Part shown: positions 3,739 through 61,714 of the stretch, piece after piece
Position numbering within the stretch: position 1 is the stretch's first letter
Layout: the number at the start of each line of letters is the position of its first letter
Source: Thermodesulfobacteriota bacterium
Lineage (GTDB): Bacteria; Desulfobacterota_D; UBA1144; Nemesobacterales; UBA2774
Direction: 5' to 3'
DNA: 64,000 nt
Assembly (NCBI GenBank): GCA_040754335.1
Contig: JBFMCV010000005.1
Span: forward strand, 263,586-327,585
Made by a program: the position numbers and the translations under genes
Notes under the pieces: generated by a model
What the model was told of the DNA's origin: nothing
What the model saw: only the letters and a program-made list of their open reading frames with translations
The model's database searches: none

Positions 3739-3790
3739 CGGCTGGCCTGTCCTGAACTTGATTCAGGAAAGCCGCTCCTACAATCACGCA
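3739..3790. repeat. Copy 1 of a repeated intergenic palindromic element (GCTGGCCTGTCCTGAA ... TTCAGGAAAGCCGCTCCTACAA)
   Basis: Shares 5' arm GGCTGGCCTGTCCTGAAC and 3' arm TTCAGGAAAGCCGCTCCTACAA with 8341-8407. Contains the inverted repeat TCCTGAA/TTCAGGA. Confidence 0.5.
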
Positions 3791-3912
3791 AGATTCACGA
3801 TACAGGATGAGATTGCCGGGAAGTGGTTCAGGATTTGGCTCAACATGACAAGAAAATTAGAGAATTCCATCCGCGAATTATTTAACATCTACAGGGGGGA
3901 GGGGGAGATGAA

Positions 3913-5013: not shown

Positions 5014-6282
5014 TTGAAACTCAGTAAACAGATAAGGCTCGGGTTCGGCCTCATGCTGATTCTCATGGTTATCATCGGGGGTCTTTTTGTATACAACGTC
5101 TACAGGCTGAACGACGCGGCTTCCAATATCGAGGGAAGGTATTCTACCCTGTATAAGCTGTTCTCGAACCCTGACAACACGATCGAGCCCGACCCCGGTA
5201 TCGGCAAGGAGATCGTCGACCGCGCCGTGGCGCTCGTCGACGAGCAGCTGAAATATAATTACACCTACGTATTGATCGCTGTCGGATTATCTTTGCTATT
5301 CGCGGGAATGATTACTGTCCTCTTCCCGTCAAAGATCACGAGACCGATTGAGCGGCTGATAAACGCCACAAAAACCGTAAAGAAGGGGGATTACTCCTAC
5401 AGGATCAAGAGCGTGGGGGAAGCCGACGAGATTTCCGCGCTGGCCGGCTCGTTCAACGAAATGCTTCAGAACATAGAGGACACCCACAGGAGCAACCTGG
5501 AGCTGCTCGAGCAGACAAAGAGGTTCAACGAGACCCTCAGGGAGAGGGTGGACGAGGCGACAAGCGAGATCAGGGAACAGCAGAACGAGCTTATCAAGGC
5601 GGAGAGGCTTGCGACGATCGGAGAGTTCGCGGCTCGCATAGCGCATGAGATAAAAAACCCGCTTTCGGGGATCACCGTTGCGCTTGAAATAATGAAAAGC
5701 AAATCGGATGACAATGACCAGCAGCAGTCCATTTCGGAGGTCCTGAAAGAGGTAAGGAGGCTCGATCGAATCCTGAAGGATCTGCTTCAGCTTTCGGTCC
5801 CGAAGGAAATGGATTTCAGAAAAGCCGATCCAAACGATATAGTGGAAAGGTCTATCCTTGTGGTGTCTCCGATCGCGGAAGAAAAGGGAGTGACCATAGA
5901 AACGGACCTCGGGTGCTCTGAAGAATTCAATCTCGATTATGAGAAGTGCCAGCAGGTCGTCATCAACCTCCTGATAAACGGAATAGACGCACTCGGGACG
6001 GGAGGAGGAAAGGTGACGGTCGGGACCGAAAGCGTCGACGGGGAGCTCCATATAAGAGTCACGGATACCGGCCACGGCATTCCGCCGCAGGATATAGATA
6101 AGGTCTTCGAGCCCTTTTATACGAGCAAAAAACAAGGTACCGGCCTCGGGCTCGCGATATCAAAAAGAATCGCGGAAGCACACGACGGGAGGATCACTGT
6201 TTCAAGCGAATTGGGGAAGGGTTCTACTTTTACGCTGGTTTTACCCGGGAGCTCAATGGAGAAAGCCAGAATATCGGTCTAG
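5014..6282 (+). CDS. Sensor histidine kinase (membrane anchor, coiled coil, HisKA, HATPase_c)
   Basis: N-terminal TM. H-box AHEIKNPLSGI. N/G1/G2 boxes (LINGIDAL, DTGHGIPPQDIDKVFEPFYTSK, GTGLGLAISKRI). Confidence 0.85.
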   Translation: MKLSKQIRLGFGLMLILMVIIGGLFVYNVYRLNDAASNIEGRYSTLYKLFSNPDNTIEPDPGIGKEIVDRAVALVDEQLKYNYTYVLIAVGLSLLFAGMITVLFPSKITRPIERLINATKTVKKGDYSYRIKSVGEADEISALAGSFNEMLQNIEDTHRSNLELLEQTKRFNETLRERVDEATSEIREQQNELIKAERLATIGEFAARIAHEIKNPLSGITVALEIMKSKSDDNDQQQSISEVLKEVRRLDRILKDLLQLSVPKEMDFRKADPNDIVERSILVVSPIAEEKGVTIETDLGCSEEFNLDYEKCQQVVINLLINGIDALGTGGGKVTVGTESVDGELHIRVTDTGHGIPPQDIDKVFEPFYTSKKQGTGLGLAISKRIAEAHDGRITVSSELGKGSTFTLVLPGSSMEKARISV

Positions 6283-6344
6283 TGTCGAGGCGCTCCTGTC
6301 GAGAACCCGAGTCCGCTGGTGTATTCTATGTCAAGGAGTAAAGA

Positions 6345-7721
6345 TTGAGCCAGACCGTATTGATAATCGACGACGAGGATTTCCTCTGTAAAAAATTGAG
6401 CGAGAGCCTCTCAGACGAGGGATTTCTCGTCAGCGCCGCCAACGACGGAGAGTCAGGGCTTCTTCTTGCCAGGAGAGACAACCCTGACCTGATCCTGCTC
6501 GACCTGAGACTCCCGGACATGGACGGGATCGAGGCCCTGGGCCAGATAAATAATATGGACCCCAGGCCCGTGACAATTCTCATGAGCGGGCACGGCAACG
6601 TGGACATGGCGGTCTCGGCCATTAAAAAGGGCGCGTATGATTTTATAGAGAAACCCTTTTCCATAGACAAGCTTAAAATAATCGTGAAGAACGCTCTCGA
6701 TAACGTCGGGCTCAAAAAAAACCTCGACACGAGGTTAAGGAGCGAGCAGAAGCAGTACGGGTTTCATGCATTAATAGGAAAGAGCGAGGCTATCAGGAAA
6801 ATTATCGAGCTCTTCGAGAAGCTCGTTACGACCGACCCCAAGACGGTGCTGATAAGCGGCGAGAGCGGGACCGGCAAGGGGCTTGCGGCGAAGGTTCTCC
6901 ACCACAACGGCGTGAGGGCTGAGAAGCCTATAATAGAGCTCAACTGCGCGGCGATTCCTGAAACACTCCTCGAAAGCGAGCTGTTCGGACACGAGGCGGG
7001 CTCGTTCACCGACGCTAAAAAGATGAAGACCGGAATATTGGAGGACGCTAACGGCGGGACTATTTTTCTCGACGAGATAGGGGATATGAGCCCCGCCCTC
7101 CAGGCGAAGCTCGTGAAGGCGGTCGAGGAGAGGACGTTCAGGAGGATCGGCGGCAAGAGGGACATAAAAGTAGACGTGAGGGTCGTCGCCGCAACGAACA
7201 AGGACTTGAAGGACCTGGTCGAAAAGAACCTTTTCAGGGAGGACCTCTACCACAGGCTCAACGTGATAAATTTCGAGATGCCGAGCCTGAGGGAGAGGAG
7301 GGAGGACATCCCCCTTCTCACGGAGCATTTTATAAGTTACTTCAACGTGGATTTCAACAAGAACATAAAGCACGTCCCCGAGGAAGTAGAAATGGCGTTT
7401 ATGGGCTACCAGTGGCCGGGGAACGTCCGCGAGCTACGGAGCACCATAGAGAGGGCGGTATTGCTCAGCGAAGGCGACACGCTCAACCCTAAGTACGTGC
7501 AGATCGACGAGCAGAGCAAGGGAGTAAAAATTCATGGCGACGAGCACAAGATGTTCTTCGAGCTCGATATGGACAAGCTCACGCTGGATACGGTCGAGGA
7601 GATGGTCATCAGGAAAGCGCTCGAGCTCAGCAGCTGGAACCAGACCAAGGCCGCCGATATGCTAGGGGTTACGAGACAGGTGCTCAGGAACAGGATGATT
7701 AAGATGGACCTGCTCAATTGA
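6345..7721 (+). CDS. Sigma-54-dependent response regulator (NtrC family: REC, AAA+ sigma-54 activator, Fis-type HTH)
   Basis: REC domain (LIIDDE...LLDLRLPDMDG). Walker A GESGTGKGLAAKVLH. GAFTGA-like GSFTDA. ESELFGHE. C-terminal HTH (TKAADMLGVTRQVLRNRM). Immediately downstream of the kinase. Confidence 0.9.
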   Translation: MSQTVLIIDDEDFLCKKLSESLSDEGFLVSAANDGESGLLLARRDNPDLILLDLRLPDMDGIEALGQINNMDPRPVTILMSGHGNVDMAVSAIKKGAYDFIEKPFSIDKLKIIVKNALDNVGLKKNLDTRLRSEQKQYGFHALIGKSEAIRKIIELFEKLVTTDPKTVLISGESGTGKGLAAKVLHHNGVRAEKPIIELNCAAIPETLLESELFGHEAGSFTDAKKMKTGILEDANGGTIFLDEIGDMSPALQAKLVKAVEERTFRRIGGKRDIKVDVRVVAATNKDLKDLVEKNLFREDLYHRLNVINFEMPSLRERREDIPLLTEHFISYFNVDFNKNIKHVPEEVEMAFMGYQWPGNVRELRSTIERAVLLSEGDTLNPKYVQIDEQSKGVKIHGDEHKMFFELDMDKLTLDTVEEMVIRKALELSSWNQTKAADMLGVTRQVLRNRMIKMDLLN

Positions 7722-8340: not shown

Positions 8341-8407
8341 GGCTGGCCTGTCCTGAACCATGTCCTGAATTTATTTCAGGATCTATTCAGGAAAGCCGCT
8401 CCTACAA
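8341..8407. repeat. Copy 2 of the same palindromic element, with a nested second TCCTGAA/TTCAGGA stem
   Basis: Same flanking arms as 3739-3790. The internal insertion duplicates the inverted-repeat core. About 85 nt upstream of the nif3 gene. Confidence 0.5.
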
Positions 8408-12441: not shown

Positions 12442-12593
12442 TAGGCCGCCAGTCAATTGAAGCCCGCCGTGAAATGTGTTATATAATTTGCCTGCCGTTA
12501 TGATTCAGGATACAAGATGCAAGATTCATGCTGCATGATAAAAAAATGTCACATCATGTATCCTGTATCGTGCATCTTGCATCGTGAAACCGT

Positions 12594-12670
12594 GGGGATG
12601 TAGCTCAGCTTGGGAGAGCGCCGCGTTCGCAACGCGGAGGTCGGGGGTTCGATTCCCCTCATCTCCACCA
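12594..12670 (+). tRNA. tRNA-Ala (anticodon CGC)
   Basis: Cloverleaf fold by hand. Acceptor GGGGATG/CATCTCC with the G3:U70 alanine identity pair. Anticodon loop TTCGCAA. T-arm GGGGGTTCGATTCCCCC. Encoded CCA. Confidence 0.9.
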
Positions 12671-12676
12671 ATGGTT

Positions 12677-13010
12677 TCAGGGGGTTGCGTCACCTTCCCT
12701 TGATTGTAAATCTCTCCTGTCACCGGATTTGTCACCAATTGAGTCAGAAAAACAGGCAGAGAGTCCTTCTAAAGCCATCTTTAGGGACTCGTTAGGGTGA
12801 GCGTATCTCATGGTCATATCCAAGGTCGAATGTCCGAGTATCTCCTTTACCGCCACTATAGAATGCCCTAGCTCAACCATTCTTGTTGCCGCGGTATGTC
12901 TCAGGTCGTGAAACCTCAGTCCTTTTATACCTGCTTTTTCTAATGCGAGAGTGTAGGCTCTTTTTAAAGAGTCATGTCTCTTATAGGGTGTTCCTTTGGA
13001 GCTAAGAAAT
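12677..13010 (-). pseudogene. Frameshifted remnant of a tyrosine recombinase (phage-type integrase) C-terminus
   Basis: The 67 aa ORF ends ...ILGHSTLDMTMRYAHPNE (catalytic Tyr box). Further upstream, in another frame, revcomp of 12895-12916 encodes HDLRHTAAT (the integrase HxxR box). The frames are broken, so the gene is not intact. Confidence 0.6.
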
Positions 13011-13012
13011 AC

Positions 13013-13036
13013 GTTCGATTCCCCTCATCTCCACCA
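13013..13036 (+). repeat. Direct repeat of the tRNA-Ala 3' end (att-like), copy 2
   Basis: GTTCGATTCCCCTCATCTCCACCA matches tRNA positions 12647-12670 exactly. The downstream flank (GTGATCTCAGGGGGTTGCGG) also resembles the flank after the tRNA. Confidence 0.6.
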
Positions 13037-13254
13037 GTGATCTCAGGGGGTTGCGGATTCTTCTAACATAGGTTTTTGCCGATCCGGGCGATCTTCAATT
13101 TTACTACCTCTCTTGTATCGATAGCCCGAGAAAAAACAGCTTAGTTTTTCCAGTCTCGTATTGTAAGATTGATTTGACGGGTGGCAAGGGCGTGGCCGCT
13201 CAACAGAGCTGATAACGTCCATCCGAACGTAAATTAAATAAAGGAGGTTAGATC

Positions 13255-13716
13255 ATGCGAGACAAAATCGTTGTTCTTGTTATGGTCTTCTTAATCGCCG
13301 CGACCCCTTTCTCCTTTGCAAAGCAGAACCAGGTTTGTGATTCATCATGCGAGAACGACGTTACGATTGTCTACCAGTTTGATCCGCGAACGGAAAGCTG
13401 CGTCAAGCACTTCGCGTATCCGTGCGAGCCATACGCCTGTGATGCTGAAGGACTCACCTGCAAAACGTCATGCGTCAGCGATGCGGACTGTTCTCAGGCT
13501 GGGAAGTGCGATACGGCAACCGGCAAGTGCGGCACCATATCGTCTTTCTGCAAGGACGCTCTCACCGTAAAGCTGACCAACGGAATAGAGCAGGAATGTA
13601 CCCCGTATGCGTGTGTCGGAGGAGCATGTCAGCAGCAGTGTGTTACTGACGGCGACTGTGCGGAGGGATATGCGTGTGCGGACGGTCACAAGTGCGAACT
13701 ACTGCCAGCTGAGTAA
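13255..13716 (+). CDS. Small secreted Cys-rich protein (about 20 Cys) made of two homologous modules
   Basis: Signal peptide MRDKIVVLVMVFLIAATPFSFA. Module 1 CEPYACDAEGLTCKTSCVSDADCSQAGKCDTATGKCG and module 2 CTPYACVGGACQQQCVTDGDCAEGYACADGHKCE. Good RBS (AAGGAGG). Confidence 0.55.
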   Translation: MRDKIVVLVMVFLIAATPFSFAKQNQVCDSSCENDVTIVYQFDPRTESCVKHFAYPCEPYACDAEGLTCKTSCVSDADCSQAGKCDTATGKCGTISSFCKDALTVKLTNGIEQECTPYACVGGACQQQCVTDGDCAEGYACADGHKCELLPAE

Positions 13717-13784
13717 GCGGCCATTTAGTTAGTCCGGGCCGCTTTGCGTGTTTCAGATTTGATGAATCCCTGCTCATTGCGAGG

Positions 13785-13832
13785 CTGTGTCCGCAACGCG
13801 GACGCCAGGTTCGATTCCCCTCATCTCCACCA
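13785..13832 (+). repeat. Partial tRNA-Ala 3' half (pseudo-tRNA, att-like), copy 3
   Basis: GTCCGCAACGCGGACGCCAGGTTCGATTCCCCTCATCTCCACCA reproduces the anticodon-stem 3' side, the T-arm and the acceptor 3' end. It is followed by GTGATTACAGGTGGTTG, similar to the flank of copy 2. Confidence 0.6.
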
Positions 13833-13944
13833 GTGATTACAGGTGGTTGTGATACGATTGAGTTAGTTCCAGTTAGATATGTGATCTGTGTACATGATAT
13901 CATCAGCCCTTCTATCCAGGCTTATTTAAGCGCTCAGCACCCCG

Positions 13945-14232
13945 TCAAAATAATCCGCTCGCTGCCAGGAAAGGAATAACGAGATAAATAAATGAATCTC
14001 TTACAATGTAATAAGCAATCACTACGAGAATAAATTTCAGTCCCCGGGTTCGTAACAGTTCTTTAAAACCTCTGTTCTTGATGATAAAGACGCTATCGAT
14101 GATATAGTACTTGTACATACTAAAGAGATAATTCTCTTTTAATATCGTTAGAATCTTGCTCATAATAACCTCCCATGCTTTGTGATAGCGGGATCGGATT
14201 CGGAAAACCAGCCATGCCGGCCCCAGTCCCAT
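13945..14232 (-). CDS. Hypothetical small membrane protein
   Basis: ORF only. AT-rich. Predicted TM segments. Confidence 0.25.
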   Translation of the reverse strand: MGLGPAWLVFRIRSRYHKAWEVIMSKILTILKENYLFSMYKYYIIDSVFIIKNRGFKELLRTRGLKFILVVIAYYIVRDSFIYLVIPFLAASGLF

Positions 14233-14241
14233 ATCACGAGT

Positions 14242-15027
14242 TCAAGCTACGGTATCAACCGTCTTCTCTTCTGTATGATGTTTCATCTTCCTGGTAAACG
14301 GTATAAACATCGGAACAGACTCCCGATATTGTTCGTACGCCCTACCGTGCTCTGATATCAAATCTCTTTCTTCGTATCTGATGGCAACGAGTATGTAAGC
14401 GGTCGTAGCGATAGCGAAGAAAAGATGGGCTGCGGTCATAGTCGGAGTCGCCCAGAAAGCAAACAACCATCCGACATATAGCGGGTGTCTTATGTATTTA
14501 TACGGTCCGGGCGTTCCGAATTTAAGCTGAGTATACGTTTCACCCATCAAATAGAGCCATACCTGGCGCAGTCCGAATAGATCAAAATGGTTTATCAGAA
14601 AACTCGTCACTAAAACAGTCACCCACCCGAATGCAAAAAGTGAGTACAGAATTATTCTTAAAGTTTCATTTTCTGCGTTCCATATGGTTCCCCCCATAGG
14701 TTGCCACTGCCAGAATAACAATATAAGCGCGAGGTTCGAGAATAATACGTAGGTGCTGCGCTCGGCTGCTTTGGGAATGAGTTTGGTCAAAATACGTTTA
14801 AATCCCGGTCTGGCCATTATACTGTGTTGCAGGGCAAAGATTCCCAGTAACACCGTATTCAGTAATAGAGCTTGAGATAGAGGAGCTTCCGGGGTTGAGT
14901 CAATGGATTTAGGCACCAGAAAATTACCTACAAAACCTATGGCGTATAAATATGTTGCAACAAATAAAAAATAAGAAACCACTCCATATCCGAAAACTAT
15001 TATTCTTTTAGAAATATCGTCTTTCAT
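14242..15027 (-). CDS. Integral-membrane methyltransferase of the ICMT/PEMT/NnrU family
   Basis: Multi-TM protein with the C-terminal motif YKYIRHPLYVGWLFAFWATP...RYEERDL, characteristic of isoprenylcysteine carboxyl methyltransferase-like enzymes. Lower GC than the flanks. Confidence 0.65.
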   Translation of the reverse strand: MKDDISKRIIVFGYGVVSYFLFVATYLYAIGFVGNFLVPKSIDSTPEAPLSQALLLNTVLLGIFALQHSIMARPGFKRILTKLIPKAAERSTYVLFSNLALILLFWQWQPMGGTIWNAENETLRIILYSLFAFGWVTVLVTSFLINHFDLFGLRQVWLYLMGETYTQLKFGTPGPYKYIRHPLYVGWLFAFWATPTMTAAHLFFAIATTAYILVAIRYEERDLISEHGRAYEQYRESVPMFIPFTRKMKHHTEEKTVDTVA

Positions 15028-15109
15028 TTTTTCTCCCTCCTGATTTCATAAATTCTAAATAGAGCGGGAGTCTCGTTCGAACCAGACTCCCAGCCCGTTT
15101 AAACCTTTG

Positions 15110-15370
15110 TTATATCCTGACGCCGAACACGAGAAGAGTATTCTCATCGCTCGTCTCCTCAACCGTGGTCAACGTATCGTCGCCGTGCGTCTTGACCGGG
15201 CTGAGGTAGAAGCTCATCGGGCTCGTCTCTACTTCCCCGCCTATCGTCTCGCTCTTCAGCTCACAGACCGCAGGGCCGTTTGTGTAAAGGACCATGTAGT
15301 CGGAAGCGAACGATAGGGCGGAAAAACCGAGCGATAACCCTAATACCGTGACTGCGATTAACTTCTTCAT
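15110..15370 (-). CDS. Hypothetical small secreted protein
   Basis: Signal peptide MKKLIAVTVLGLSLGFSALSFA. ORF only. Confidence 0.4.
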   Translation of the reverse strand: MKKLIAVTVLGLSLGFSALSFASDYMVLYTNGPAVCELKSETIGGEVETSPMSFYLSPVKTHGDDTLTTVEETSDENTLLVFGVRI

Positions 15371-15582
15371 TGCACTTACCTCCGTTTGATTTATTTGCTG
15401 AGATAATGGTGCAACGGATGTGCCAAAGATAAATGAGAAACATATATCAACGATTACAGCGAGTTATGAAGTTATAGAGGGTAACGAATTATTATTGAAT
15501 TTTCGCTCATAGCGATTTCTCGCTACAATGTGCTAATATCTGTGATAACTAGGCTCGCTGTAATGAGAGCTCCGGGAAGGGG

Positions 15583-15990
15583 GTGGCAGAAATGAGGGGC
15601 ATGTACCTAGCATGTGCGGCGGCTGTTTTTATTATGCTTGTCGTACCGTTTTCCCGCGCCGGGTCGAACCTGAACTCGTCGAAGAGCAACCTCTATAAGC
15701 TCGTATATTCGACGGATGCAGTGAGCTCATCTCAGGCGGCGGCTATACTCGCGGACCTCGATGCCGCAACGCAGAGCCAGGGACGGGTAAATCTCGATGC
15801 CGCGGTGGGTCAGGCTTTGAACAAGCAGGGCCTCGACACGAAAATCAAAAAGACGATCATCAGGCCTGCGGCGGCAGGTCAGCTTACGACAATCATCATA
15901 CTCTCGAACCCTGCTGACGAGGCTCAGGCGATAGCCGTGGCCGACGAGGGCGTGCCAGCGGATAAGCCGAAAGGGAAGAAGACGAACTGA
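15583..15990 (+). CDS. Hypothetical secreted protein
   Basis: Hydrophobic N-terminus. ORF only. Confidence 0.4.
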   Translation: MAEMRGMYLACAAAVFIMLVVPFSRAGSNLNSSKSNLYKLVYSTDAVSSSQAAAILADLDAATQSQGRVNLDAAVGQALNKQGLDTKIKKTIIRPAAAGQLTTIIILSNPADEAQAIAVADEGVPADKPKGKKTN

Positions 15991-16115: not shown

Positions 16116-16829
16116 GTGAATCCGGCAATGTATGCGAAGAATATACCTTTCGCCAGTCACGAGGTGAGGTGGTTTTTCGACGGGGCTGTCGATAAAAATC
16201 CCGCCCTGGGGAGCTGGTTTGAAACCAGCTCGCCTATTCCAAAGCAGGGCGGCTTCGGCCCGCCTGTGTGGATGGGAAGACTCGGCGGCGAGCCTGACGT
16301 GTATCTGCTCGTACCGGGGGCGGACGACATGGGCATCAAGTGGCGGGAAGGGAACTTTCAGGTCAAGGGACGCACGGCTTCACTCGGGGTGCACTCGTTT
16401 TGCGGGCGGTTTCAAGGGTCTGTCGAGCGCTGGGTGAGGTGGTCCTACGCGGGCATGCCGGAGGCGTACCGGAATTTGTTTCTCGACGGGAACGAAAAGG
16501 GTTTAATCACAGTAAGCGTCCGGAAGACACGGGCACTCCGCAAGATAAAGATAGACACATACGACGGGAGCGCATTGGAAGTCGATCCGAAGGAGTTCAT
16601 CGACCGCGGGATTAATTTCGAGCTCACTGATATAGAAGTCGGCGGGAAGCCTTATTGCACGGTTGCGTTCGAAGCGTATCCCGACGATTCGGCGATGCAC
16701 GCCGCGTTTACGCGGGTGGTTGAAGCGTTTCTCGGCGGGCTTAAGGGGGTTGAATTGGGCGCGGGGAACTCGATGTCGTATCCGGAGTGGCTTTTGAACA
16801 TAGTTTCAGGAGCTGGTAATAGCGGATAA
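16116..16829 (+). CDS. Hypothetical protein
   Basis: Coding-like composition. No motif I can name. Confidence 0.45.
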   Translation: MNPAMYAKNIPFASHEVRWFFDGAVDKNPALGSWFETSSPIPKQGGFGPPVWMGRLGGEPDVYLLVPGADDMGIKWREGNFQVKGRTASLGVHSFCGRFQGSVERWVRWSYAGMPEAYRNLFLDGNEKGLITVSVRKTRALRKIKIDTYDGSALEVDPKEFIDRGINFELTDIEVGGKPYCTVAFEAYPDDSAMHAAFTRVVEAFLGGLKGVELGAGNSMSYPEWLLNIVSGAGNSG

Positions 16830-16989
16830 ATGGGGTAATTGTGGATTGGTCGAGGAGGGAGCAGAAAAAGTATTATCAAGATTACTGATATAGCTTGATG
16901 GAAAATTTTCCTTCATACTGTCGGATGTTATAGAAGCACGGTCAGACTATCAAAAGTTAAAAGAATCTGATTACTATTATAATATTTAT

Positions 16990-17916
16990 ATGACTGGCCC
17001 GAAAATAAATTACATTGCAAAGGTGGGCGAAAACAAAGGGTGGCGTTTGTTAGGTGATGAACCACAAATGCAATGGAAAGCATTGGAGCGATATATTGCT
17101 GAAAACTGGGGAAAAGACAAAGCCGGCATGAAGGCAATTTTAGGTTGCCTAGTAAAGCTTGATGCTTGTTTGATGCAAATCAGTAGAATTAGGGAATTTT
17201 ACGATAAATTTATACAGTCAGCTAGTGATAACGCCACAAAGAATAAAGGCAAAGAGTTTTTGTTTGTTTTAAATGGTCAAGAAGCAATTGCGGATTTTGA
17301 ATCATTACTACTTCATGGGAGAGCAGCGTTAGATAGATTGACATGGTTGGTTTCGGAGAAATATAATAGCAAAACGCAGAGTTATAGGAGTCTTGAAAAG
17401 ATTCTGAATAATTTTGCACACAAGGATCAAAAAGCAAAAAACATACTTGAGTTTGTAAATATATCGAATAGCTGGGTGCTTGGATTACTTGCTACAGTTG
17501 GCAATGATGAATCATTCAGGGATTTTGTCGCTCACAAAATTGCTAGCATAGAGAAGCGAGTAACTTGTTTTCAGATACATGTTATGACTGATGGTAAATG
17601 CATTTTACTAGATTGTGTTTTAGATAGGTTTCCCGTTTTCAAAAGTAGTACTGAAGCAGTTAAATTCCTGTCATATCTAGTCTTGAACTCATTGGCTACA
17701 ATTGTGGAACAGAAAGTATATAGTATAGATAAGTACGATTCGCTGTGGGAGAATAAAGCAGTTGTTTTCGCAGATTTTGTACTTGACGAGCCGGAAAATT
17801 CACCACTAGGTAAAAATCATTTAAGGGTCGTAAGTGATATGAATCCTGATAATTTCGTTCTACGTACTAGAAACGTGAGACCGGATATATTTAATCATAG
17901 CATTAAGTTACTGTAA
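16990..17916 (+). CDS. Hypothetical protein in a strongly AT-rich segment (likely foreign); contains an Rx4H motif (RDFVAH)
   Basis: Composition shifts sharply relative to neighbours (visually about 35-40% GC). 308 aa ORF with no recognisable catalytic motifs except a HEPN-compatible Rx4H. Confidence 0.5.
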   Translation: MTGPKINYIAKVGENKGWRLLGDEPQMQWKALERYIAENWGKDKAGMKAILGCLVKLDACLMQISRIREFYDKFIQSASDNATKNKGKEFLFVLNGQEAIADFESLLLHGRAALDRLTWLVSEKYNSKTQSYRSLEKILNNFAHKDQKAKNILEFVNISNSWVLGLLATVGNDESFRDFVAHKIASIEKRVTCFQIHVMTDGKCILLDCVLDRFPVFKSSTEAVKFLSYLVLNSLATIVEQKVYSIDKYDSLWENKAVVFADFVLDEPENSPLGKNHLRVVSDMNPDNFVLRTRNVRPDIFNHSIKLL

Positions 17917-18021
17917 TGAATAATTTTAGAATCTACCGTATCCTTCCAGAATTTCTTAATCCAATTCTAATATTGTCTATAGCTATGTTTGTAATGTTAT
18001 TAGGTCTAATAAATCTCGGTT

Positions 18022-19584
18022 TCACGCGATTTGGGCTTTCTTCTGCCTCTTTTCCATTTCGGACTTGAGGTAGGCGTTCTGGTCGTGGTAGATAGCGCCC
18101 TCGGGCAGGTATTCCCAGAGGGGGCCGAGGTCCTTCTTCATTATATCGATGTAGAACTGGGGTATCTCCCTCGTCTCGCCCTCGAAGAACGCCCTGAACT
18201 GAACATCATCGTCCAAAAATTTCCTTATCTTGCGATAGTACCGAAGACGCCCGAAGCCTTCCGTGGAGACGGCGCGCATCAGGTTCATCCACCGGGGAAT
18301 GCGAGTCCTCGTTTTCCTGAAGCGGTTGTAGATAGAGCGCCACGAGTACGAGTATTCGGCAAGCCCGATTATATTGTCGTAGAATTCGGGCCATGAGTAG
18401 TTCCTGGGCTTCACGTTAGAGGCGTGGCTGTTGTTCATAAAATGGAACGGGAACGGGAGCACCCTGTCCTCGCTCTGGTATTCGAGGTTGAGCGGCGCAG
18501 CCCTGCCGAAAGCCGTGATAAGCGGATAGGCAGGGAAAGCGGCGGGAGCGAGATCGACGAACCTCTTCGTGAGCTCGAAAGACTCCGCCCCGTTATCGCT
18601 GTCGAGCCCGACGACGAAATTCGTCTGCACGTAGGGTATGTAACTCAGTATTTGATTTATATGCTCCGAGACGGCCTTTACCTTTTCCATCCCCTGCTTC
18701 GCCCCGGTCTTGGACTTATTCCCCATATCGAACCAGGATTCGATGCCCGGCAGTACGGCCTGGAAGCAGTTTTGTTTGAGGCGCTTCAGGTGGGGCTCGG
18801 AAAGGAGAGAGAGGCTGCTCTCGGCTATGAAGTCGATGCTCCCTACCGGTACGGCTTCTTCGATCGCGTTCATGTAATCGTCGAAACGTACGCCGAAGTT
18901 GGGGTCGTACCAGCTCACAAGCGGCCGTTTTATCTTCGTCCGGACGAATCTTAAATCTTCCTTGAGCATATCGAAGTCGAGCGGCTGATAAGGCTCGCTC
19001 GCGTCGATGCAGAAGCTGCATGTATAAGGGCAGCCGAGGCTCCCGATCATCGGGACTACCTTAAAGAGGAAAGTCGTCTTCTCCAGCGCCTTCGAGATGT
19101 ACTTCCAGCGCTCCCTCACTCCGGGGAGGTGTTTCGGTGAGCTCTTCGCCGACAAGCTCACACCTTCGGGCCTGTAGGGCCTGCAGTCCTCGAGCACGTC
19201 CCGGCATAGCTCCTCGTCGGTGATCCCCATTACGTAGTCGAAATACTTGACCGCGTCTTCGGGGTAACAGCGTGCGTGAGGACCTCCAAGAGCGGTGACT
19301 ACGCCCTCCCGCCTGTATTTCGCACTAAGCGCATAAGCCTGAATTGCGGATTGAGTAAAGGCGCTTATGAAGACCATGTCCACGTCTTTCGGCGCGTCCT
19401 TAGCCAGGTCTTCGAGCCCCGTAAAAATGAAATATTGAACCTCGTGTCCCGCGTCCTCGCACCATTTGGCTATGACCTGGGGCATGATGCCCATGAAGTT
19501 TGCGTGCATAACGCGCGCCCAGATAGAATGGTTAGGGGACTTTGTGATGAAGTCGATTACGCCGATTTTGAGTTTCTGCATCAA
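18022..19584 (-). CDS. B12-binding-domain radical SAM enzyme (class B rSAM)
   Basis: N-terminal Rossmann-like B12-binding region. Radical SAM cluster motif GCPYTCSFC (Cx3Cx2C). About 520 aa, typical of class B rSAM methyltransferase-like enzymes. Confidence 0.8.
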   Translation of the reverse strand: MMQKLKIGVIDFITKSPNHSIWARVMHANFMGIMPQVIAKWCEDAGHEVQYFIFTGLEDLAKDAPKDVDMVFISAFTQSAIQAYALSAKYRREGVVTALGGPHARCYPEDAVKYFDYVMGITDEELCRDVLEDCRPYRPEGVSLSAKSSPKHLPGVRERWKYISKALEKTTFLFKVVPMIGSLGCPYTCSFCIDASEPYQPLDFDMLKEDLRFVRTKIKRPLVSWYDPNFGVRFDDYMNAIEEAVPVGSIDFIAESSLSLLSEPHLKRLKQNCFQAVLPGIESWFDMGNKSKTGAKQGMEKVKAVSEHINQILSYIPYVQTNFVVGLDSDNGAESFELTKRFVDLAPAAFPAYPLITAFGRAAPLNLEYQSEDRVLPFPFHFMNNSHASNVKPRNYSWPEFYDNIIGLAEYSYSWRSIYNRFRKTRTRIPRWMNLMRAVSTEGFGRLRYYRKIRKFLDDDVQFRAFFEGETREIPQFYIDIMKKDLGPLWEYLPEGAIYHDQNAYLKSEMEKRQKKAQIA

Positions 19585-24811: not shown

Positions 24812-27205
24812 TTACTTTAAGTCGACTTTCTTTTCACTGCCGTAAGATTCCGCGCTCAAATCCGTGCCGTCCGTTTCGACGGTTACCTCTCCGAGGACGG
24901 AAGTATCGAAGACTGCAACATGCCTTAGGGATTCTCTTAGCGGAACGTCGTCAGCCATGAGCGACGGATCATGCTCTCCCGTTACCAGAATGCGGGGCGA
25001 TACCTCGTTCAGGAATGAAGAAAACGCTTCGTCTGTAATAACGGGAGAAATAAAGAGGACGTCGCTCCTCAGCCTCTCCCCGTAAGTGCCCGTGAGCGCC
25101 GAAAGAGCCTTGGCATCGCCGAGGGACTCGCCCGTGAGAAAAATCCGGTTCTCGAAAGCAAGCCTGAGCGCGAGCGGGCGGGGGAGAGAAGAGTCCCTGA
25201 TTACGAAGTCGCCGCCGGGCTTAAATACTTCCAGTTTCGATCCATCGCCAAGTGGGATCTCGTCCATGCCGGCAAGGTCTTGCCAATTTATCCCCTTCTC
25301 CTTGATGATTCCCCAGAGCCCGCCGTCGAGCTTGTCGCCGTTCGTTATTACCTTACCTACCCTGAAATTCTCGAGCAGGTATTTCGCGCCGCTCATGTGG
25401 TCCTTATCTGTCGAAGTCAGAATCAGTATGTCGATACCGTTCACTCCGGAATGGAGCAGGAATCTGCCGGCCACGTTTCTTTCTATGTACCCCTTCCTGT
25501 CGAGGTTCGAATAGCCGCCGTCTATGAGGAGGTTTCTGCCGCCCGGGAGCTCGAAGAAGACAATGCTTTTATCCTCTCCGGCGTCGAGGAAGCTTGCCGT
25601 TAGTCCGCGGCCGCGATACCTCTCGATAACCGGGTACGCCGCGCTCAGTACGAATGCGAGCGCTATCGCGGGAAGGATGAATTTTATCCTCCCGTATCTT
25701 CCCGCGAGCAGTATGGCTATGCCGAGGGCAAAGAAGAGCAGAAGGCTGAGCGCGCCGAGAGGGGGTATCGTCAGGGACGAGTACGGTATATCGAGCAGCA
25801 GCCCGATGCCGAATACCATCATGTTGATGAAATGTATGTTGATGGATATGAGTGCCCACGCTATGCGTTCGGAAATCATAAATACAAGGAAAGAGAGTAG
25901 GCCCAGAGGCACTATCAGAAGCTCGACGAGCGGCACCAAGACGATGTTCGCCGGTACGGATACGAGGGGGAGTATGCCGAACGAGTTTATTATCAGCGGG
26001 AACGTCGCGAACGTGGCGGCGCACGTCGTCTTTACGAGAGTCGCCGCCTTATCCCTTAGCGTGCCGAACCTGAAGGGGAAGAACTTGTGCGCGAGCAGGA
26101 TGCCGAGAACTGCCGCGAACGAGAGCTGGAACGAGAGCTCGAACAAAGACCACGGGTGCCAGAGGAGAATGACGAACCCTGCAACGCCCAGGGTATTCAG
26201 CTTGTTTTCGTCCCTCCCGGCCATTATCGCGAGGAAGAAAACGGATATCATGATAAAGGCCCTGACCGCGGGAGTGTTGAAGCCGGCGACGGCGGTATAG
26301 AAGAAGAGAGGCAGTATCGTTAATGCCGCCGCGATCTTCATCACCTTGAAGCGAAGCATCATGTACTCGGAGCGCTTGAGAAGCCATTTGATCAAGAGAA
26401 AGAAGACCACGGCCACAGCGCCTACGTGAAGACCCGACACGGATAGCACATGGGCCACTCCGGCTTTCGAGAACTCCACCCTCGCGCCGGGCGGGATGCC
26501 GCCGTCGTCTCCTATGGTGAGCGCGTTAAGTATCTCGTTCCCGGGCGGCGGGAAATTCGTCCTAACGAAGTTCCCGTACCGGAGCCTGAGCCTGTCGAGG
26601 GAATATATGACGGAGCTATACGATTTATCGCGCCCGAACGAGATGATGTACTCGCTTCCCTCGACGAACCCCGTCGCGTAGACGCCCTGTCTTTCATAGT
26701 ACTTTCTGACGTCGAACGCACCTTCGTTTCTGAAATTGGTAACGGGCTTAAGCTTTACGCCTATAACGCGTATCCTGTCCCCGTACGAGATCCCGGGGGC
26801 GTCTTCAGCCGTCGAGATTATGACCTTTCCGTTCACCGGTTCTGGGACCCCGTCCGCTATCGCATATTCCGTATCTAAAAAGAGCCTGGATCCCGTTTCC
26901 TTTTTCTCGGGAGACTTGTAGACAGTACCTTCGAGGTCGATCTTCGTTCCCTCGAACGACGTAATGCCCGCGCCGGGGGAATATAAAGGGCCCACGCTGA
27001 AAAGAATGCCGATCGGGATGAATAAAAGGAACCTCAGGGCCGGTGCGAGGAGGGCGATTATGCCGAAAAGAGGGGTCGTTATTGCGATAACGAGCCAGGG
27101 GGTCCCTATATACTCGTTCAACAGAATGCCTGCGCAGAGTCCTGAGAGAGGGGGGATTATTTTATACCTTGCCGTGAAATCCCGTAAGATGGCTGCGATC
27201 CGCAT
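24812..27205 (-). CDS. comEC: DNA internalisation competence protein ComEC/Rec2 (DUF4131, competence and metallo-beta-lactamase domains)
   Basis: Multi-TM competence domain with the HVLSVSGLHVGAV motif. C-terminal MBL fold (LTASFLDAGEDKSIVFFELPGGRNLLIDGG ... HDHMSG). Confidence 0.85.
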   Translation of the reverse strand: MRIAAILRDFTARYKIIPPLSGLCAGILLNEYIGTPWLVIAITTPLFGIIALLAPALRFLLFIPIGILFSVGPLYSPGAGITSFEGTKIDLEGTVYKSPEKKETGSRLFLDTEYAIADGVPEPVNGKVIISTAEDAPGISYGDRIRVIGVKLKPVTNFRNEGAFDVRKYYERQGVYATGFVEGSEYIISFGRDKSYSSVIYSLDRLRLRYGNFVRTNFPPPGNEILNALTIGDDGGIPPGARVEFSKAGVAHVLSVSGLHVGAVAVVFFLLIKWLLKRSEYMMLRFKVMKIAAALTILPLFFYTAVAGFNTPAVRAFIMISVFFLAIMAGRDENKLNTLGVAGFVILLWHPWSLFELSFQLSFAAVLGILLAHKFFPFRFGTLRDKAATLVKTTCAATFATFPLIINSFGILPLVSVPANIVLVPLVELLIVPLGLLSFLVFMISERIAWALISINIHFINMMVFGIGLLLDIPYSSLTIPPLGALSLLLFFALGIAILLAGRYGRIKFILPAIALAFVLSAAYPVIERYRGRGLTASFLDAGEDKSIVFFELPGGRNLLIDGGYSNLDRKGYIERNVAGRFLLHSGVNGIDILILTSTDKDHMSGAKYLLENFRVGKVITNGDKLDGGLWGIIKEKGINWQDLAGMDEIPLGDGSKLEVFKPGGDFVIRDSSLPRPLALRLAFENRIFLTGESLGDAKALSALTGTYGERLRSDVLFISPVITDEAFSSFLNEVSPRILVTGEHDPSLMADDVPLRESLRHVAVFDTSVLGEVTVETDGTDLSAESYGSEKKVDLK

Positions 27206-27562
27206 TATCGTGTGTTCCGTAAGTATCCGACGTCCGGTCCGGGTTTGAGTATCAATTATATGACGAAGAGAGTGATATTCTCAATATCGAGAATCATCGT
27301 CGTACTACCCATAATCATTTATGATTGAAGCATCGGTTCGGTTTAGTAAGGGGATCCATCGAAAATTAGTTTTTATCGGAGTCTTTTCTTCATTTTGTAA
27401 TCAATTCATCGACCCAACTGAGGCTTGGTTTGTTTATATCAATCCCTCCTTGACGTATCAATCAATGATGCTATAATAATCATAACAGAATCATCACTTG
27501 GCCGATTGTTTTTGTTTGGTGATTCAGTTATATTAAAAAAGCACACTCGAAGAGGTGTTATT

Positions 27563-27991
27563 ATGATTGAGATTAGAGAAGCAATAGCTCAGAAAAAACG
27601 TGATATAGCCCGTCTTCGTTCAGCGGTAGCTGAACTTAAAGAAGCGGAAGAAGATCTAAAGGCTCTTGAACGGGCATATGAGTTAATGGGTGGTGCAAAT
27701 GAAAAGTCACCACAGCCGAAACTATCGATTGAACCGACTGATAAGACACAAAATCTAACCATTTCTGAAGCAGTGGAGATGATTCTAAATAAACGGAAAA
27801 CACCCTTACACATGGATGAAATCTTGAAAGAAATCAACGTAACCTACGGTAAAGATACAACAAAAGAAGCTTTGGCGGTCGCAATAGGCCGTAGTATGGC
27901 AAGACATAAGATCTTTATCAAAACAGATCCCGCAACGTATGGGTTAGTTACATGGTATCAGAAAGAAAATGATAAAAATAAAAAAGAATAG
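27563..27991 (+). CDS. Small protein with N-terminal coiled coil and C-terminal HARE-HTH-like winged-helix domain
   Basis: Located in an AT-rich stretch. C-terminal segment TISEAVEMILNKRKTPLHMDEILKEI...TDPATYGLVTW matches the HARE-HTH pattern (ends F.k...G.YGL). Start set at the ATG at 27563 after GAAGAGGTG. Confidence 0.45.
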   Translation: MIEIREAIAQKKRDIARLRSAVAELKEAEEDLKALERAYELMGGANEKSPQPKLSIEPTDKTQNLTISEAVEMILNKRKTPLHMDEILKEINVTYGKDTTKEALAVAIGRSMARHKIFIKTDPATYGLVTWYQKENDKNKKE

Positions 27992-28085
27992 GCGTTTAAT
28001 CGTGATCTTGTTCTTGAAAGGTGATAATTACGAAGAAAGCGGAGAAAGATACCCTAAATATCCTTCTCCGCTCAAACATGTTTTT

Positions 28086-28159
28086 GCTGCTGTCGTCTAG
28101 AGGGTCGAGGACACCCGACTTTGGATCGGGTAACGGGGGTTCAAATCCCCCCAGCAGCA
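28086..28159 (+). tRNA. tRNA-Gln (anticodon TTG)
   Basis: Acceptor GCTGCTG/CAGCAGC. Glu/Gln-type D-arm TCGTCTAGAGGGTCGAGGAC. Anticodon arm CCCGA-CTTTGGA-TCGGG. T-arm GGGGGTTCAAATCCCCC. CCA not encoded. Confidence 0.75.
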
Positions 28160-28252
28160 CTTATTATAAAATTATAACACGTATATATATCTTGTATAGG
28201 TATATACATTTAGCCTAAAGTAAATGAATGTCGGGCTGATTTTTCGTTGAAA

Positions 28253-53859: not shown

Positions 53860-55305
53860 ATGTCCAGAAACGGCGTTTTGCAAAGATATTCATCGCATCT
53901 CAAAATTCTGATGAAAAAAGATACTGAGGACGTGCTGTGGCGGGTCTTGTTATGGGGGATATTTGCGGGAATCCTCGTCTCTATTTTTTTCTATTCGTAT
54001 AATCGGGAATTTGATCCGGATGAAATAGAGCATTTACATACTGCATGGAAAATCGCTCAGGGTCAGGAAATATTTGTCGATTTCTTTCAGCACCATCATC
54101 CGTTCTTCGATTACTTGATTACACCAATTATCCGTACTTTCGGGGCCACCGTCGAGTCCATATTCGTTAGTCGTTATTTCATGTTATTGTTCACTGCTTG
54201 TATTTTGATTACGACCTATCTGTTGTCTCTCAGAATATTCAAGAATTCCGAAGTGGGAATCATCAGTTTGATATTGACCTCGACTGACATTACGTTTTAT
54301 ATGAAATCGATCGAGATCAGGCCCGACGTTCCGCAAGTACTGGCGGGACTTTTATCAATATATTTTTTATTTGTCTACTATGATAGAAAGTCTCTCAAGA
54401 GTCTTATAGCCAGTTCGGTATTCCTGGCAGTCTCTTTTCTTTTTCTGCAAAAAAGCATTGTTTTAATTATTGCTATCGGCGCACTGCTGCTTTACGACGT
54501 ATTCAAAAAGTACGTTACCTACCGGCATGCAGCCCTATACGCGGCGGTCTTTATAATATCGATATCGCCGTATTACATATATGTCTTGCTGAGCGGTACT
54601 TTTGAGCAATATTTTGTGACAAACTGGTTAGTCAACTATCATCTTCATGAGGGTTCAGGAATGCTGGATATCTATCTTGTAATCGCGAGAGAGAACACCA
54701 TTACGTTGGTCCTTTACCTGATAGGCGTGATAACGATGTTCGGGTTGGGCATGGAAAGGAGATTTGCTGCGCTTTCGCTCCTTCTGATGATCATCCCATC
54801 AATTTTGTTTCATAACATCTTGAGGCAGTACCTGGTGCTTGCAGTGCTCCCCTTCTGTATTATCGCGAGCTACGCGCTTTATTCGGTTTTTGACAGAAGG
54901 CTGTTCAGGCTAATCGTTGTAATAGGGGCAATATATATACCTCTAATCTACACTCACAATTATGGATTTTTCAGATTGGATAGACGGGGTCAGAGAGATC
55001 AGCTGGCTAAAATTGAATATGTGTTGTCGATAACCGACGAAAACGACAAAGTTTATGACGGCAATGTCATATTTAATGTATTTCGTGACGACATCGATTA
55101 TTTCTGGTTTTGCATGGAGCATTCGTCCTGTCTCGATGCGTATAAGAAAGTAACGGGTTACAAATATAACGTCTATGATTCGATCGTTGCAAAGAAGCCT
55201 AAAGTCATATCGACTTACGAAATTGGCAGTCTCGATGACGTAAGAATCAAGAATAACTATAAAGTGTCGGAGAGGTATCCGGATTTGTTAATAAGAGTGG
55301 ATTAG
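53860..55305 (+). CDS. GT-C-like integral-membrane glycosyltransferase candidate with a C-terminal soluble domain (paralog A)
   Basis: About 10 TM helices. First-loop motif FDPDEIEHLHTAWKI (DE motif as in PMT/ArnT). About 130 aa C-terminal soluble domain. About 60% identical to 55489-56883. Confidence 0.55.
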   Translation: MSRNGVLQRYSSHLKILMKKDTEDVLWRVLLWGIFAGILVSIFFYSYNREFDPDEIEHLHTAWKIAQGQEIFVDFFQHHHPFFDYLITPIIRTFGATVESIFVSRYFMLLFTACILITTYLLSLRIFKNSEVGIISLILTSTDITFYMKSIEIRPDVPQVLAGLLSIYFLFVYYDRKSLKSLIASSVFLAVSFLFLQKSIVLIIAIGALLLYDVFKKYVTYRHAALYAAVFIISISPYYIYVLLSGTFEQYFVTNWLVNYHLHEGSGMLDIYLVIARENTITLVLYLIGVITMFGLGMERRFAALSLLLMIIPSILFHNILRQYLVLAVLPFCIIASYALYSVFDRRLFRLIVVIGAIYIPLIYTHNYGFFRLDRRGQRDQLAKIEYVLSITDENDKVYDGNVIFNVFRDDIDYFWFCMEHSSCLDAYKKVTGYKYNVYDSIVAKKPKVISTYEIGSLDDVRIKNNYKVSERYPDLLIRVD

Positions 55306-55488
55306 GTCGATGAGAGTCGCTGAAAGAATTGATATCCACGTGGTTGGAACGGAAGAGAAAAATGTCTTAACCTTACTTTTCGCCCCGGAACCGGCCTTGT
55401 TGAATTGAATAACCGACCGGCATGCGGAGTTCATCATCATGTTTTGGCAGAAAGTGAAGTCACGGTTAGCATTGTAACTACAATCTAA

Positions 55489-56883: not shown

Positions 56884-56911
56884 TGCCCGCTGACGGCATG
56901 GAGGTTATATT

Positions 56912-57469
56912 GTGATTCTGAATGACCTTGCTTTGTTTTCATCTCTTTTTCTATTCCAGATACTATTATTCTGTCTTCTGCAAATCGTAATTCTGAGGAT
57001 TTTTGCGGAAATCAACATTCTATGCTCATCGGCAGTTGCCGTCGTTCTGAGCGTATCATCGGTAACAATCCTGAGCTATTTTCTTGTCTCCGGCCTGTTT
57101 TCCACTCCCCAATCATACGCCGTTTCGGCTGCGGGGAGCGGAGCGGCTGCAGTATTCGCCTGCGGCCTCTATACGTTTTTGGGGCCGGCTACCGCGGACC
57201 GGTCATTGGCATGTCAGCTGCTGGTATTCCTTTATGGCAGGGCCGGGACCGCATACGGGCTGGAGGAACTGAATCTTCGTTTCGACTCTCTGGGTTTTAT
57301 CGAGAAGCGAATAAACGAATGCAGGAGAGAGGATATTATCGAGGATTTTAACGGAACGGTGGTATTGACGGAAAAGGGGAAAAGGATCGCGAAGGTCTAT
57401 ATATTTCTTCTCCGCTCACTCGGTCTTCGCGAAAGAAGTGATTACAAGGAATATTTCCCGAACGGTTAG
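56912..57469 (+). CDS. Hypothetical small membrane protein with a C-terminal soluble domain
   Basis: Three predicted TM segments. ORF only. Confidence 0.35.
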   Translation: MILNDLALFSSLFLFQILLFCLLQIVILRIFAEINILCSSAVAVVLSVSSVTILSYFLVSGLFSTPQSYAVSAAGSGAAAVFACGLYTFLGPATADRSLACQLLVFLYGRAGTAYGLEELNLRFDSLGFIEKRINECRREDIIEDFNGTVVLTEKGKRIAKVYIFLLRSLGLRERSDYKEYFPNG

Positions 57470-57477
57470 CACGCATA

Positions 57478-59097: not shown

Positions 59098-59170
59098 TTA
59101 TTCGGCGCGTAAGGCACAATTGTGATTCCGGCGGGTATAGATTCATAGATTCCCGAAGTCGGCTGCCGGA

Positions 59171-60766: not shown

Positions 60767-60939
60767 GAATAATGTGCTCTGATTAATTTATAAATCGTCT
60801 GCGGTACATATGTCAACAAGTTCGCCGCATGAGGTTGAAATTAGTACGCCGCGAGCTGAATCTTCATTCGGATTAGAGGGTAAAAAAGATGATGGAGGAC
60901 CACTCCGTTTTCTAAAGGGTCTTTTTCCGGGCGGCTCTT

Positions 60940-61545: not shown

Positions 61546-61636
61546 GGCTCATCCTCACGTGTTTGTGATGTCCTAACTATACAACAAGTGGGCCGTGCGA
61601 GTCTATCTGGATGTATTTTGAGTTAATGCAGCCGGT

Positions 61637-61714
61637 TGGTAGCCCCTACGGGATTTGAACCCGTGTTTTAGCCTTGAGAGGGCTACGTCCTAGGCCAGGC
61701 TAGACGAAGGGGCC
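61637..61714 (-). tRNA. tRNA-Glu (anticodon CTC)
   Basis: Minus-strand GGCCCCTTCGTCTAGCCTGGCCTAGGACG-TAGCC-CTCTCAA-GGCTA-...ACGGGTTCAAATCCCGT-AGGGGCT-A-CCA. Glu-type D-arm. Encoded CCA. Confidence 0.85.

Follow-up and report, generated by a model that had tools for sequence, protein, structure and literature searches.

The 64-kb window analysed here (64,000 nucleotides of contig JBFMCV010000005.1, from a Thermodesulfobacteriota bacterium) carries an intact tRNA-Ala(CGC) gene whose 3′ end is repeated twice downstream; the remnant of a tyrosine integrase and a gene for a cysteine-rich, secreted-type protein lie between the repeats. This arrangement is very probably the result of serial, integrase-mediated insertion into the 3′ end of the tRNA gene, followed by decay. 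A preliminary description, made from the sequence of the window, had proposed serial integration and erosion, and related genomes now bear this out: their empty and alternative sites are bounded at the repeats, and intact integrase genes stand beside the same tRNA. The locus is a real yet ordinary genomic-island scar of the known type, in which elements accrete in tandem and leave remnants of the cis-mobilizable element (CIME) kind. The parts of the array, with attachment sites abbreviated att, are as follows.

12594..12670, plus strand: tRNA-Ala(CGC), intact, the integration target, with att copy 1 at its 3′ end (ARAGORN)
12647-12670, 13013-13036 and 13809-13832, plus strand: exact copies of the 24-nucleotide (nt) core
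12647..12689, plus strand: att copy 1, consisting of the 24-nt core (T-loop to CCA) and a 19-nt conserved flank
12671..12769, plus strand: P′-arm-like sequence with TGTCAC twice, 11 nt apart (12719-12724 and 12730-12735), overlapping the poorly conserved integrase tail
12677..13012, minus strand: integrase pseudogene (unit S1), the in-frame C-terminal third of a tyrosine recombinase (PF00589, phrog_1)
13013..13055, plus strand: att copy 2, core 24/24 and flank 16/19, its left edge fused to the cut integrase through GT microhomology
13056..13783, plus strand: unit S2, att-bounded, about 0.8 kb, with one gene and no integrase, CIME-like
13255..13716, plus strand: gene for a 153-amino-acid (aa) secreted-type protein with 18 cysteines and a signal-peptide-like N-terminus, the S2 cargo
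13717-13742: GC hairpin and T-rich tail after the cysteine-rich gene, read from the sequence and kept in the related contig L051
13784..13851, plus strand: att copy 3, attR type, consisting of a degenerate tRNA 3′ half (13784-13808), the core (13809-13832) and the flank (13833-13851)

The 24-nt tRNA 3′ end, GTTCGATTCCCCTCATCTCCACCA, has exactly three matches in the window, all on the plus strand, and none in 100 shuffles of the sequence, even when up to three mismatches were allowed. Likeness extends 19 nt beyond the CCA in all three copies, so that the 43-nt family (24 nt of core and 19 nt of flank) shows 93% and 88% identity to copy 1. The preliminary description had rightly noted the recurrence at 13013-13036 with a similar flank, as well as a longer 3′ half at the third site, and the shuffles, together with the insertion boundaries in relatives, refute chance matches; its “three nested copies”, however, are in fact two extra copies in tandem direct repeat, three only if the tRNA’s own end is counted. 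Copy 3 includes an additional, diverged part from the anticodon stem to the T-stem (13784-13809; 77% identity, with a 2-nt deletion), which brings its tRNA-derived half to about 48 nt. As in other elements that target tRNA genes, the 3′ direct repeat bounds the inserted DNA and the tRNA remains intact with a paired T-stem. The att-bounded block from copy 1 to copy 3 comprises 1162 nt only. In Rfam, the tRNA region alone scored, with tmRNA-like (transfer-messenger RNA-like) matches under the gathering threshold. The first DNA pattern searched in metagenomes gave no match.

Unit S1 lies between copies 1 and 2. Its single open frame runs from 13012 to 12677, encodes VFLSSKGTPYKRHDSLKRAYTLALEKAGIKGLRFHDLRHTAATRMVELGHSIVAVKEILGHSTLDMTMRYAHPNESL... 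and matches PF00589 (Phage_integrase) over profile positions 96-170 of 172 (E 8.7e-17), as well as PHROG integrase families (phrog_1). Catalytic motifs (HDLRH, LGH and RY) are kept, and the remnant has the placement and orientation that are canonical for such a gene; about 258 N-terminal codons and a start codon for the full frame are missing, such that the remnant begins at about residue 259. A tyrosine-recombinase C-terminus had been described here as frameshifted; the C-terminus is present, but it lies in one open frame and is damaged by 5′ truncation instead. The truncation falls exactly at copy 2, where GT microhomology is all that the two sides of the junction share, and the homology of the window to related DNA that starts at the tRNA likewise ends there, at 13014 (81% to L072 and 86% to L037). 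At the protein level, the remnant is 88% identical to the intact L072 integrase and 87% identical to P0001/L037. The position beside the left att site, taken in the window by a 5′-truncated pseudogene only, is taken in L016 and L072 by intact orthologues. No further integrase remnant was found on the right side of copy 2 or copy 3, and the 19-nt flank is all that these positions have in common. The composition of both units departs from that of core genes (GC content 0.45 in S1 and 0.51 in S2, versus 0.56).

The strongest evidence comes from the same site in relatives. Using the flanking AAA-ATPase gene as query, 36 loci were retrieved; names such as L001 denote these and other related contigs. 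The closest AAA-ATPase loci, at 82-91% amino acid identity, belong to metagenome-assembled genomes (MAGs) labelled Candidatus Dadabacteria or Thermodesulfobacteriota, and the gene order leuA-AAA-tRNA-Ala(CGC) is kept in 17 Dadabacteria-like loci. Three kinds of alternative site were found among the relatives, as the empty-site comparison suggested in the preliminary description would have it, and in each the boundary between present and absent DNA lies at the repeats.

The first kind lacks the block altogether. In L046, a 15-kb contig from ENA whose leuA-AAA region is 84.5% identical to that of the window, the tRNA runs straight into GTGGTTTCAAATAGTTGTGATACAATTGAG, which is the window sequence after copy 3 (GTGATTACAGGTGGTTGTGATACGATTGAG), and 1.7 kb of homology follows (L046rc 5344-7049 against window 13789-15526, 83%). 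The flank of copy 3 (13833-13851) matches the native tRNA flank of L046. The insertion in the window is therefore exactly 1162 nt, from copy 1 to copy 3, and copy 3 is an attR-type junction to DNA that natively follows the tRNA in this lineage. The second kind, seen in L051 and also in L052 and L053, holds S2 only: tRNA-Ala is followed by a canonical P′ arm, S2, a second att copy, an empty-site-like flank and o135, a gene that also lies to the right of the array in the window. In the third kind (L003, L004, L006 and L007), both S1 and S2 are absent; an o135 homologue lies within 0.2-0.4 kb of the tRNA and is followed, where the contig permits, by a gene for a 237-aa protein and a B12/radical-SAM gene. 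Homology of these empty-site loci to the window resumes at about 15505-15516, thus window positions 12671 to about 15500 are extra DNA relative to them.

The L051 layout shows that S2 is a separate unit, about 0.8 kb long and bounded by att sites, that stands alone in another genome. The homology (89% of nucleotides over 13095-13832) takes in the cysteine-rich gene, its hairpin and the degenerate tRNA-like stretch before it stops at the CCA. The degenerate tRNA half that precedes the core of copy 3 is thus part of S2, namely its P arm, in agreement with the integration model. A 62-nt block upstream of the cysteine-rich gene (13125-13186) is 100% identical to L051, compared with about 91% for the open reading frame (ORF). 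A minus-strand match to a sigma-70-like promoter (13187-13160) lies across part of this block and is directed toward the position that an integrase gene would occupy. The cysteine-rich protein itself, correctly noted at the outset as a secreted-protein gene between the copies and here placed between copies 2 and 3, has only six homologue clusters in 5.8 billion proteins and no match in Pfam, NCBIfam, PADLOC or PHROG. In L054 a cysteine-rich gene of this type lies beside a PrimPol-helicase remnant like that of the L044 element described below, which supports its being element cargo. With a single ORF without recombinase homology, no integration or transfer genes, and attL- and attR-type sites retained in copies 2 and 3 (cores 24/24), S2 has, as far as its sequence tells, the make-up of a CIME-like remnant.

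More complete members of the family show what the remnants may once have been. L016 carries an intact 363-aa integrase gene on the minus strand, 25 nt past the tRNA, with the catalytic and SAM-like N-terminal domains above Pfam cutoffs and a weak, sub-cutoff match to Arm-DNA-bind_3; the L072 integrase, about 365 aa long and likewise intact, occupies the equivalent place. L044 carries a clean 5.75-kb element. Its tRNA-Ala and the second copy have about 70 nt in common, from the anticodon stem through the CCA together with the same post-CCA flank, and between them lie the integrase gene, small ORFs and genes for a PrimPol/PriCT/AAA_25 helicase and an HTH_17 protein. In L040-L043 the tRNA-Ala(GGC) gene is the site of a related integrase; the repeat there is about 50 nt long and has a flank of like kind. 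The sequence that follows the tRNA is common to L002, L005, L010, L011, L030, L035, L037, L051 and L072, and across many loci it includes two TGTCAG/TGTCAC repeats spaced 11 nt apart; we read this flank as a P′ arm, in which the repeats may be arm-type sites.

Damage to the integrase is widespread in the family. The best 120 database homologues of the S1 remnant (P0001-P0120) are all 67-195 aa long, the integrases of L040-L044 are spread over three reading frames, L005 keeps the integrase tail alone, L015 has the gene in two pieces, and intact integrases were seen only in L016, L064 and L072. Either pervasive decay or contigs fragmented at the repeat would produce such a pattern, and fragmentation may be a part of it. 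The site has other occupants as well: an arsR-arsC-arsD-arsA operon (L005 11950-15000), a DNA methyltransferase and restriction-enzyme pair (L015 12811-14639), and two units with one gene between two att copies and no integrase, namely a 1.25-kb unit with a PRTase-domain gene (L008 11595-12922) and a 1.1-kb unit with a TIR-domain gene (L069 2101-3228). The latter two look defence-related. In L070 (1-4750, and also in L063), 4.3 kb with seven cysteine-rich signal-peptide proteins of 82-156 aa lie between tRNA-Ala and a second att copy, and a C-terminal integrase fragment is fused to the left edge of that copy, much as in the window. The integrase break is near residue 251 in L070/L063 and at 259 in the window, about 8 codons apart; if two breaks were placed at random in a gene of 1.1 kb, they would be this near to each other about 5% of the time.

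Taken together, these observations make it very probable that a family of small integrative elements of Dadabacteria-like bacteria attaches at the tRNA-Ala(CGC) 3′ end. The family integrase would be of the three-domain tyrosine type, and complete copies carry the integrase, a PrimPol-helicase, an excisionase-like HTH_17 gene and cargo. The attP of the element would bear a tRNA-like 3′ half, and recombination, which we infer to take place within the shared 24-nt core (T-loop to CCA), would rebuild the tRNA from the element’s copy and move the other copy to the far end. Since integration in this manner restores the tRNA and leaves a second 3′ copy, elements accumulate head to tail when the process recurs; once a further element had entered one of the sites so formed, the order would be att-unit-att-unit-att. 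Subsequent loss of integrase and backbone would leave S1, with its P′ arm and the last third of the integrase gene, and S2, with its single gene. The order of these events, and the route by which S1 was truncated, are reconstructions of the same conditional kind.

Several points weigh against this account. The window contains no functional integrase, so that activity is not demonstrable. Copy 2 is joined to the middle of an integrase gene and not to a P arm, which implies an extra event. In L051, T-stem position 64 differs between the copies, and a single crossover in the T-loop explains this incompletely. The P′ flank of S2 shows no more than 50% identity between the window and L051, and the TGTCAG repeats are missing from the window copy; vertical inheritance with differential loss is not separable from independent insertion.

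As for the extra event at copy 2, intact integrase genes contain TTCATTGCCC or TTCACTTCCCC, resembling TTCGATTCCCC, and recombination at such a secondary site, in register between the att core and an integrase pseudo-core, was considered as its source. The junctions in the window and L070 do not line up with these sequences, however, which makes this route doubtful. The two junctions are also out of register with each other, by 25 nt on the integrase side and by 7 nt on the tRNA-like side.

Units such as S2 might instead be non-autonomous mini-elements moved by an integrase acting in trans, in which case S2 would have entered the window and L051 lineages independently. The occurrence of S2 with the same ends in two array contexts (the window and L051) would fit this view, as would its intact cores, the canonical P′ arm retained by the L051 copy, and the existence of further integrase-less, single-gene units of 0.8-1.25 kb at the same tRNA (PRTase in L008 and TIR in L069). 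However, identity of S2 between the window and L051 is close to that of the adjoining o135 region (89% and 85%, respectively), as vertical descent predicts; the P arm is conserved with L051, yet the P′ arm of the window copy is degraded; only one cassette occurs in two contexts, and neither a circular form nor a trans-acting integrase was seen. We consider mini-elements of this kind unlikely on this evidence.

It is quite unlikely, too, that S1 and S2 arrived as one pre-assembled composite that was excised elsewhere through its outermost att sites and integrated once. Transfer of CIME-ICE tandem composites (ICE, integrative and conjugative element) is documented (PMC5704250), and L046 lacks both units, as a single arrival would predict. 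On the other hand, L051 holds S2 without S1 and L037 and L072 hold S1-type elements without S2; thus S1 and S2 exist separately in relatives.

A more far-reaching idea is that the tRNA-Ala att site works as a cassette platform, on which integrase-less units of about 1 kb are taken up, shuffled and discarded by integrases in trans and the integrase cuts near codons 251-259 arise as a by-product. If so, the site would be integron-like in function while built on a tRNA att site, and the units (cysteine-rich secreted protein, TIR and PRTase) would each bring their own P and P′ arms with a tRNA-tail core. We regard this as decidedly improbable.

The abutment of a C-terminal integrase part on the left att edge, in both the window and L070/L063 and at breakpoints so close together, is also what would be expected of a system like that of the Sulfolobus spindle-shaped virus (SSV), where the attP site is internal to the integrase gene, which is divided by integration into N- and C-terminal parts. 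This possibility was rejected and is barely tenable: the att core contains stop codons in the integrase frame, no N-terminal part occurs anywhere in the window, the intact integrases of L016 and L072 adjoin the tRNA without an internal att site, and the two junctions are out of register, as described above. Finally, chance matches or slippage duplications of the tRNA 3′ end, unrelated to mobile elements, have nothing in their favour but the shortness of copy 2, and we give them almost no credence in view of the shuffles, the integrase remnant between the copies and the coincidence of the insertion boundaries in L046 and L051 with the repeats. Serial integration followed by decay therefore remains our reading of the array, and what lies to the right of it has a different history.

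The right-hand neighbour of copy 3 is a non-core segment with a small gene module, with the following parts.

13852..about 15505, minus strand: segment S3, non-core, GC 0.43, with a P′-like flank at its start and holding o86-mddA-o95
13945..14232, minus strand: o95, a small membrane-type protein, last gene of the module, found with mddA in L045, L046, L047 and L059
14242..15027, minus strand: mddA, predicted methanethiol S-methyltransferase (NF045656 equivalog)
15110..15370, minus strand: o86, a small signal-peptide protein, first gene of the module, upstream of mddA in L045, L046 and L047
15410..15425, minus strand: sigma-54 type promoter, TGGCACatccgTTGCA, a consensus match ahead of o86-mddA-o95

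The gene at 14242-15027, earlier described as an ICMT-like methyltransferase that might be cargo, is by its profile match mddA: the predicted enzyme scores 339 bits against NF045656 (cutoff 270; E 1e-101), with residues 7-243 aligned to profile positions 2-238 of 238, and homologues at 77-93% identity bear the JGI name methanethiol S-methyltransferase. MddA methylates methanethiol to dimethylsulfide (DMS) (PMC5607357, PMC11445057). The gene is indeed non-core; it is not part of the att-bounded block, however, for it lies to the right of copy 3 and predates the insertions. S3 is absent from L003, L004, L006, L007 and L051, present in L046, where it is joined to the tRNA, and present at this locus in L059. 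Since L046 has S3 directly at the tRNA and neither of the att-bounded units, the mddA module would be older than both. S3 probably derives from an insertion of earlier date; with up to four mismatches allowed, no fourth att copy was found where the mddA segment ends on the right. The module covers 1.48 kb (13945-15426, GC 0.44). The match at 15410-15425 is one of only two to the sigma-54 consensus in the 64 kb, and the promoter is conserved in L045, L046 and L047; homology of the module begins at this promoter. Module and promoter recur in L045 (88% of nucleotides) and L047 (78%) beside a sigma-54 activator and in otherwise different surroundings, which indicates that o86-mddA-o95 has changed genomic context.

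Beyond S3, the gene order is again that of the empty-site loci.

15583-15990: o135, gene for a 135-aa protein, conserved neighbour of tRNA-Ala
16116-16829: o237, gene for the 237-aa protein, conserved neighbour of tRNA-Ala
18022-19584: B12/radical-SAM gene, conserved neighbour

Since all three genes follow the tRNA in the empty-site loci, they are conserved neighbours rather than cargo. The proposal that cargo of the stack extends to about 18 kb thus fails, the att-bounded block being far shorter; the AT-rich composition noted at 16.9-18.0 kb is real (GC 0.35 at 16.8-18.0 kb, compared with 0.55-0.57 in flanking core genes) and has a separate origin. Homology of the window to its relatives ends at 16793-16796 and resumes at 18022, and the intervening 16797-18021 is a 1.2-kb low-GC (0.35) insertion with a 308-aa ORF, at which flanking repeats were not found. 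None of the related loci has a homologue of the 308-aa gene (GC 0.36), which is, on these sequence features, a separate insertion without an att copy. Each relative has its own version of the spacer between o237 and the radical-SAM gene; it measures 64 nt in L012, roughly 0.9 kb in L005 and roughly 1.9 kb in L004. Neither o86, o95, o135 and o237 nor the 308-aa protein (o308) has a match in PADLOC, PHROG, Pfam or NCBIfam.

Some further features of the tRNA genes and their surroundings were recorded. Between the AAA gene and tRNA-Ala lies an imperfect palindrome of about 85 nt (12495-12592; 36-nt arms, 81% complementary), in a spacer of 152 nt that measures 142 nt in L004 and 66 nt in L001. Related short-repeat pieces (TTCAGGA..., CAGGATACAGGAT) occur near 3770-3820 and 8350-8400, and the palindrome may be a small dispersed repeat or a miniature inverted-repeat transposable element (MITE). 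The T-stem of tRNA-Ala varies among the loci: the pair is G50:C64 in the window and C50:G64 in the relatives closest to it, while the tRNA-Ala of L001 (11531-11607) has a G50/G64 mismatch (5′ strand GGGGG, 3′ strand CCCGT), a combination also present in the distal att copy of L051 (1101-1143). These variants may be the footprint of crossovers between elements and hosts with different tRNA alleles. Low-GC (0.41-0.49) stretches at 27000-28160 and 54000-61714 adjoin tRNA-Gln and tRNA-Glu, the two other tRNAs of the window, whose 3′ ends have no repeats within it.

In practical terms, the comparison documents a hot spot of gene gain and loss in Dadabacteria, to our knowledge a phylum known only from metagenomes. 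It supplies precise att sites and intact integrase references (L072 and L016) for the annotation of islands in Dadabacteria MAGs, and it cautions that most of the “integrase” genes called automatically at this site are pseudogenes. The presence of the mddA module in at least two genomic contexts bears on the spread of DMS-producing capacity. Current understanding of integrative elements is unchanged by these findings, and the locus is readily placed among systems already known.

The likeness to integron cassettes is one of resemblance only: both are arrays of single, promoter-poor or self-contained genes, with recombination sites and a tyrosine recombinase nearby. Unlike integrons, the window has no IntI-type integrase, attI or folded attC; its sites are copies of a tRNA 3′ end, its units keep arm-like sequences, and its integrase family is phage-type and arm-binding. 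P4-like and satellite elements at tRNA genes combine an integrase with a primase-helicase and an AlpA/HTH_17 excisionase, and L044 has the same combination (integrase, PrimPol/PriCT/AAA_25 helicase and HTH_17) between tRNA-derived direct repeats. It differs in that no phage-related genes or helper relationship are demonstrable, and the window keeps an integrase fragment only.

A closer parallel is found in the ssrA islands of Dehalococcoides, which lie in tandem downstream of one small-RNA gene and each terminate in a directly repeated copy of that gene’s 3′ end; many have no integration module and have been put forward as CIMEs, with a crossover inferred in the T-loop (PMC3146451). Tandem repeats of an RNA 3′ end, integrase-less units, additional conservation around the repeats and the inferred T-loop crossover are common to both systems. 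The Dehalococcoides islands use a serine recombinase, a 20-bp ssrA repeat and rdhA cargo, whereas the tRNA-Ala family has a tyrosine integrase, repeats of 24 to about 70 nt, and cargo comprising secreted-protein, defence, ars and restriction-modification genes.

The scheme of accretion and decay itself was described for streptococcal tandems of ICEs, integrative and mobilizable elements (IMEs) and CIMEs at the 3′ ends of tRNA and housekeeping genes (PMC5704250); the work reviewed there is that of Pavlovic 2004 and Bellanger 2011. The window differs in its host, an uncultivated Dadabacteria-like lineage, in the extremely small size of its remnants (0.34 and 0.8 kb, each a gene or a fragment), and in showing no conjugation or mobilisation genes at the locus, its complete relatives resembling PrimPol-helicase elements and not ICEs. 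The course of events would nonetheless be the same: elements with a tyrosine integrase enter the 3′ end of a gene, the resident decays to an att-flanked remnant without an integrase, and a new element integrates beside that remnant to give arrays of the form att-element-att-element-att.

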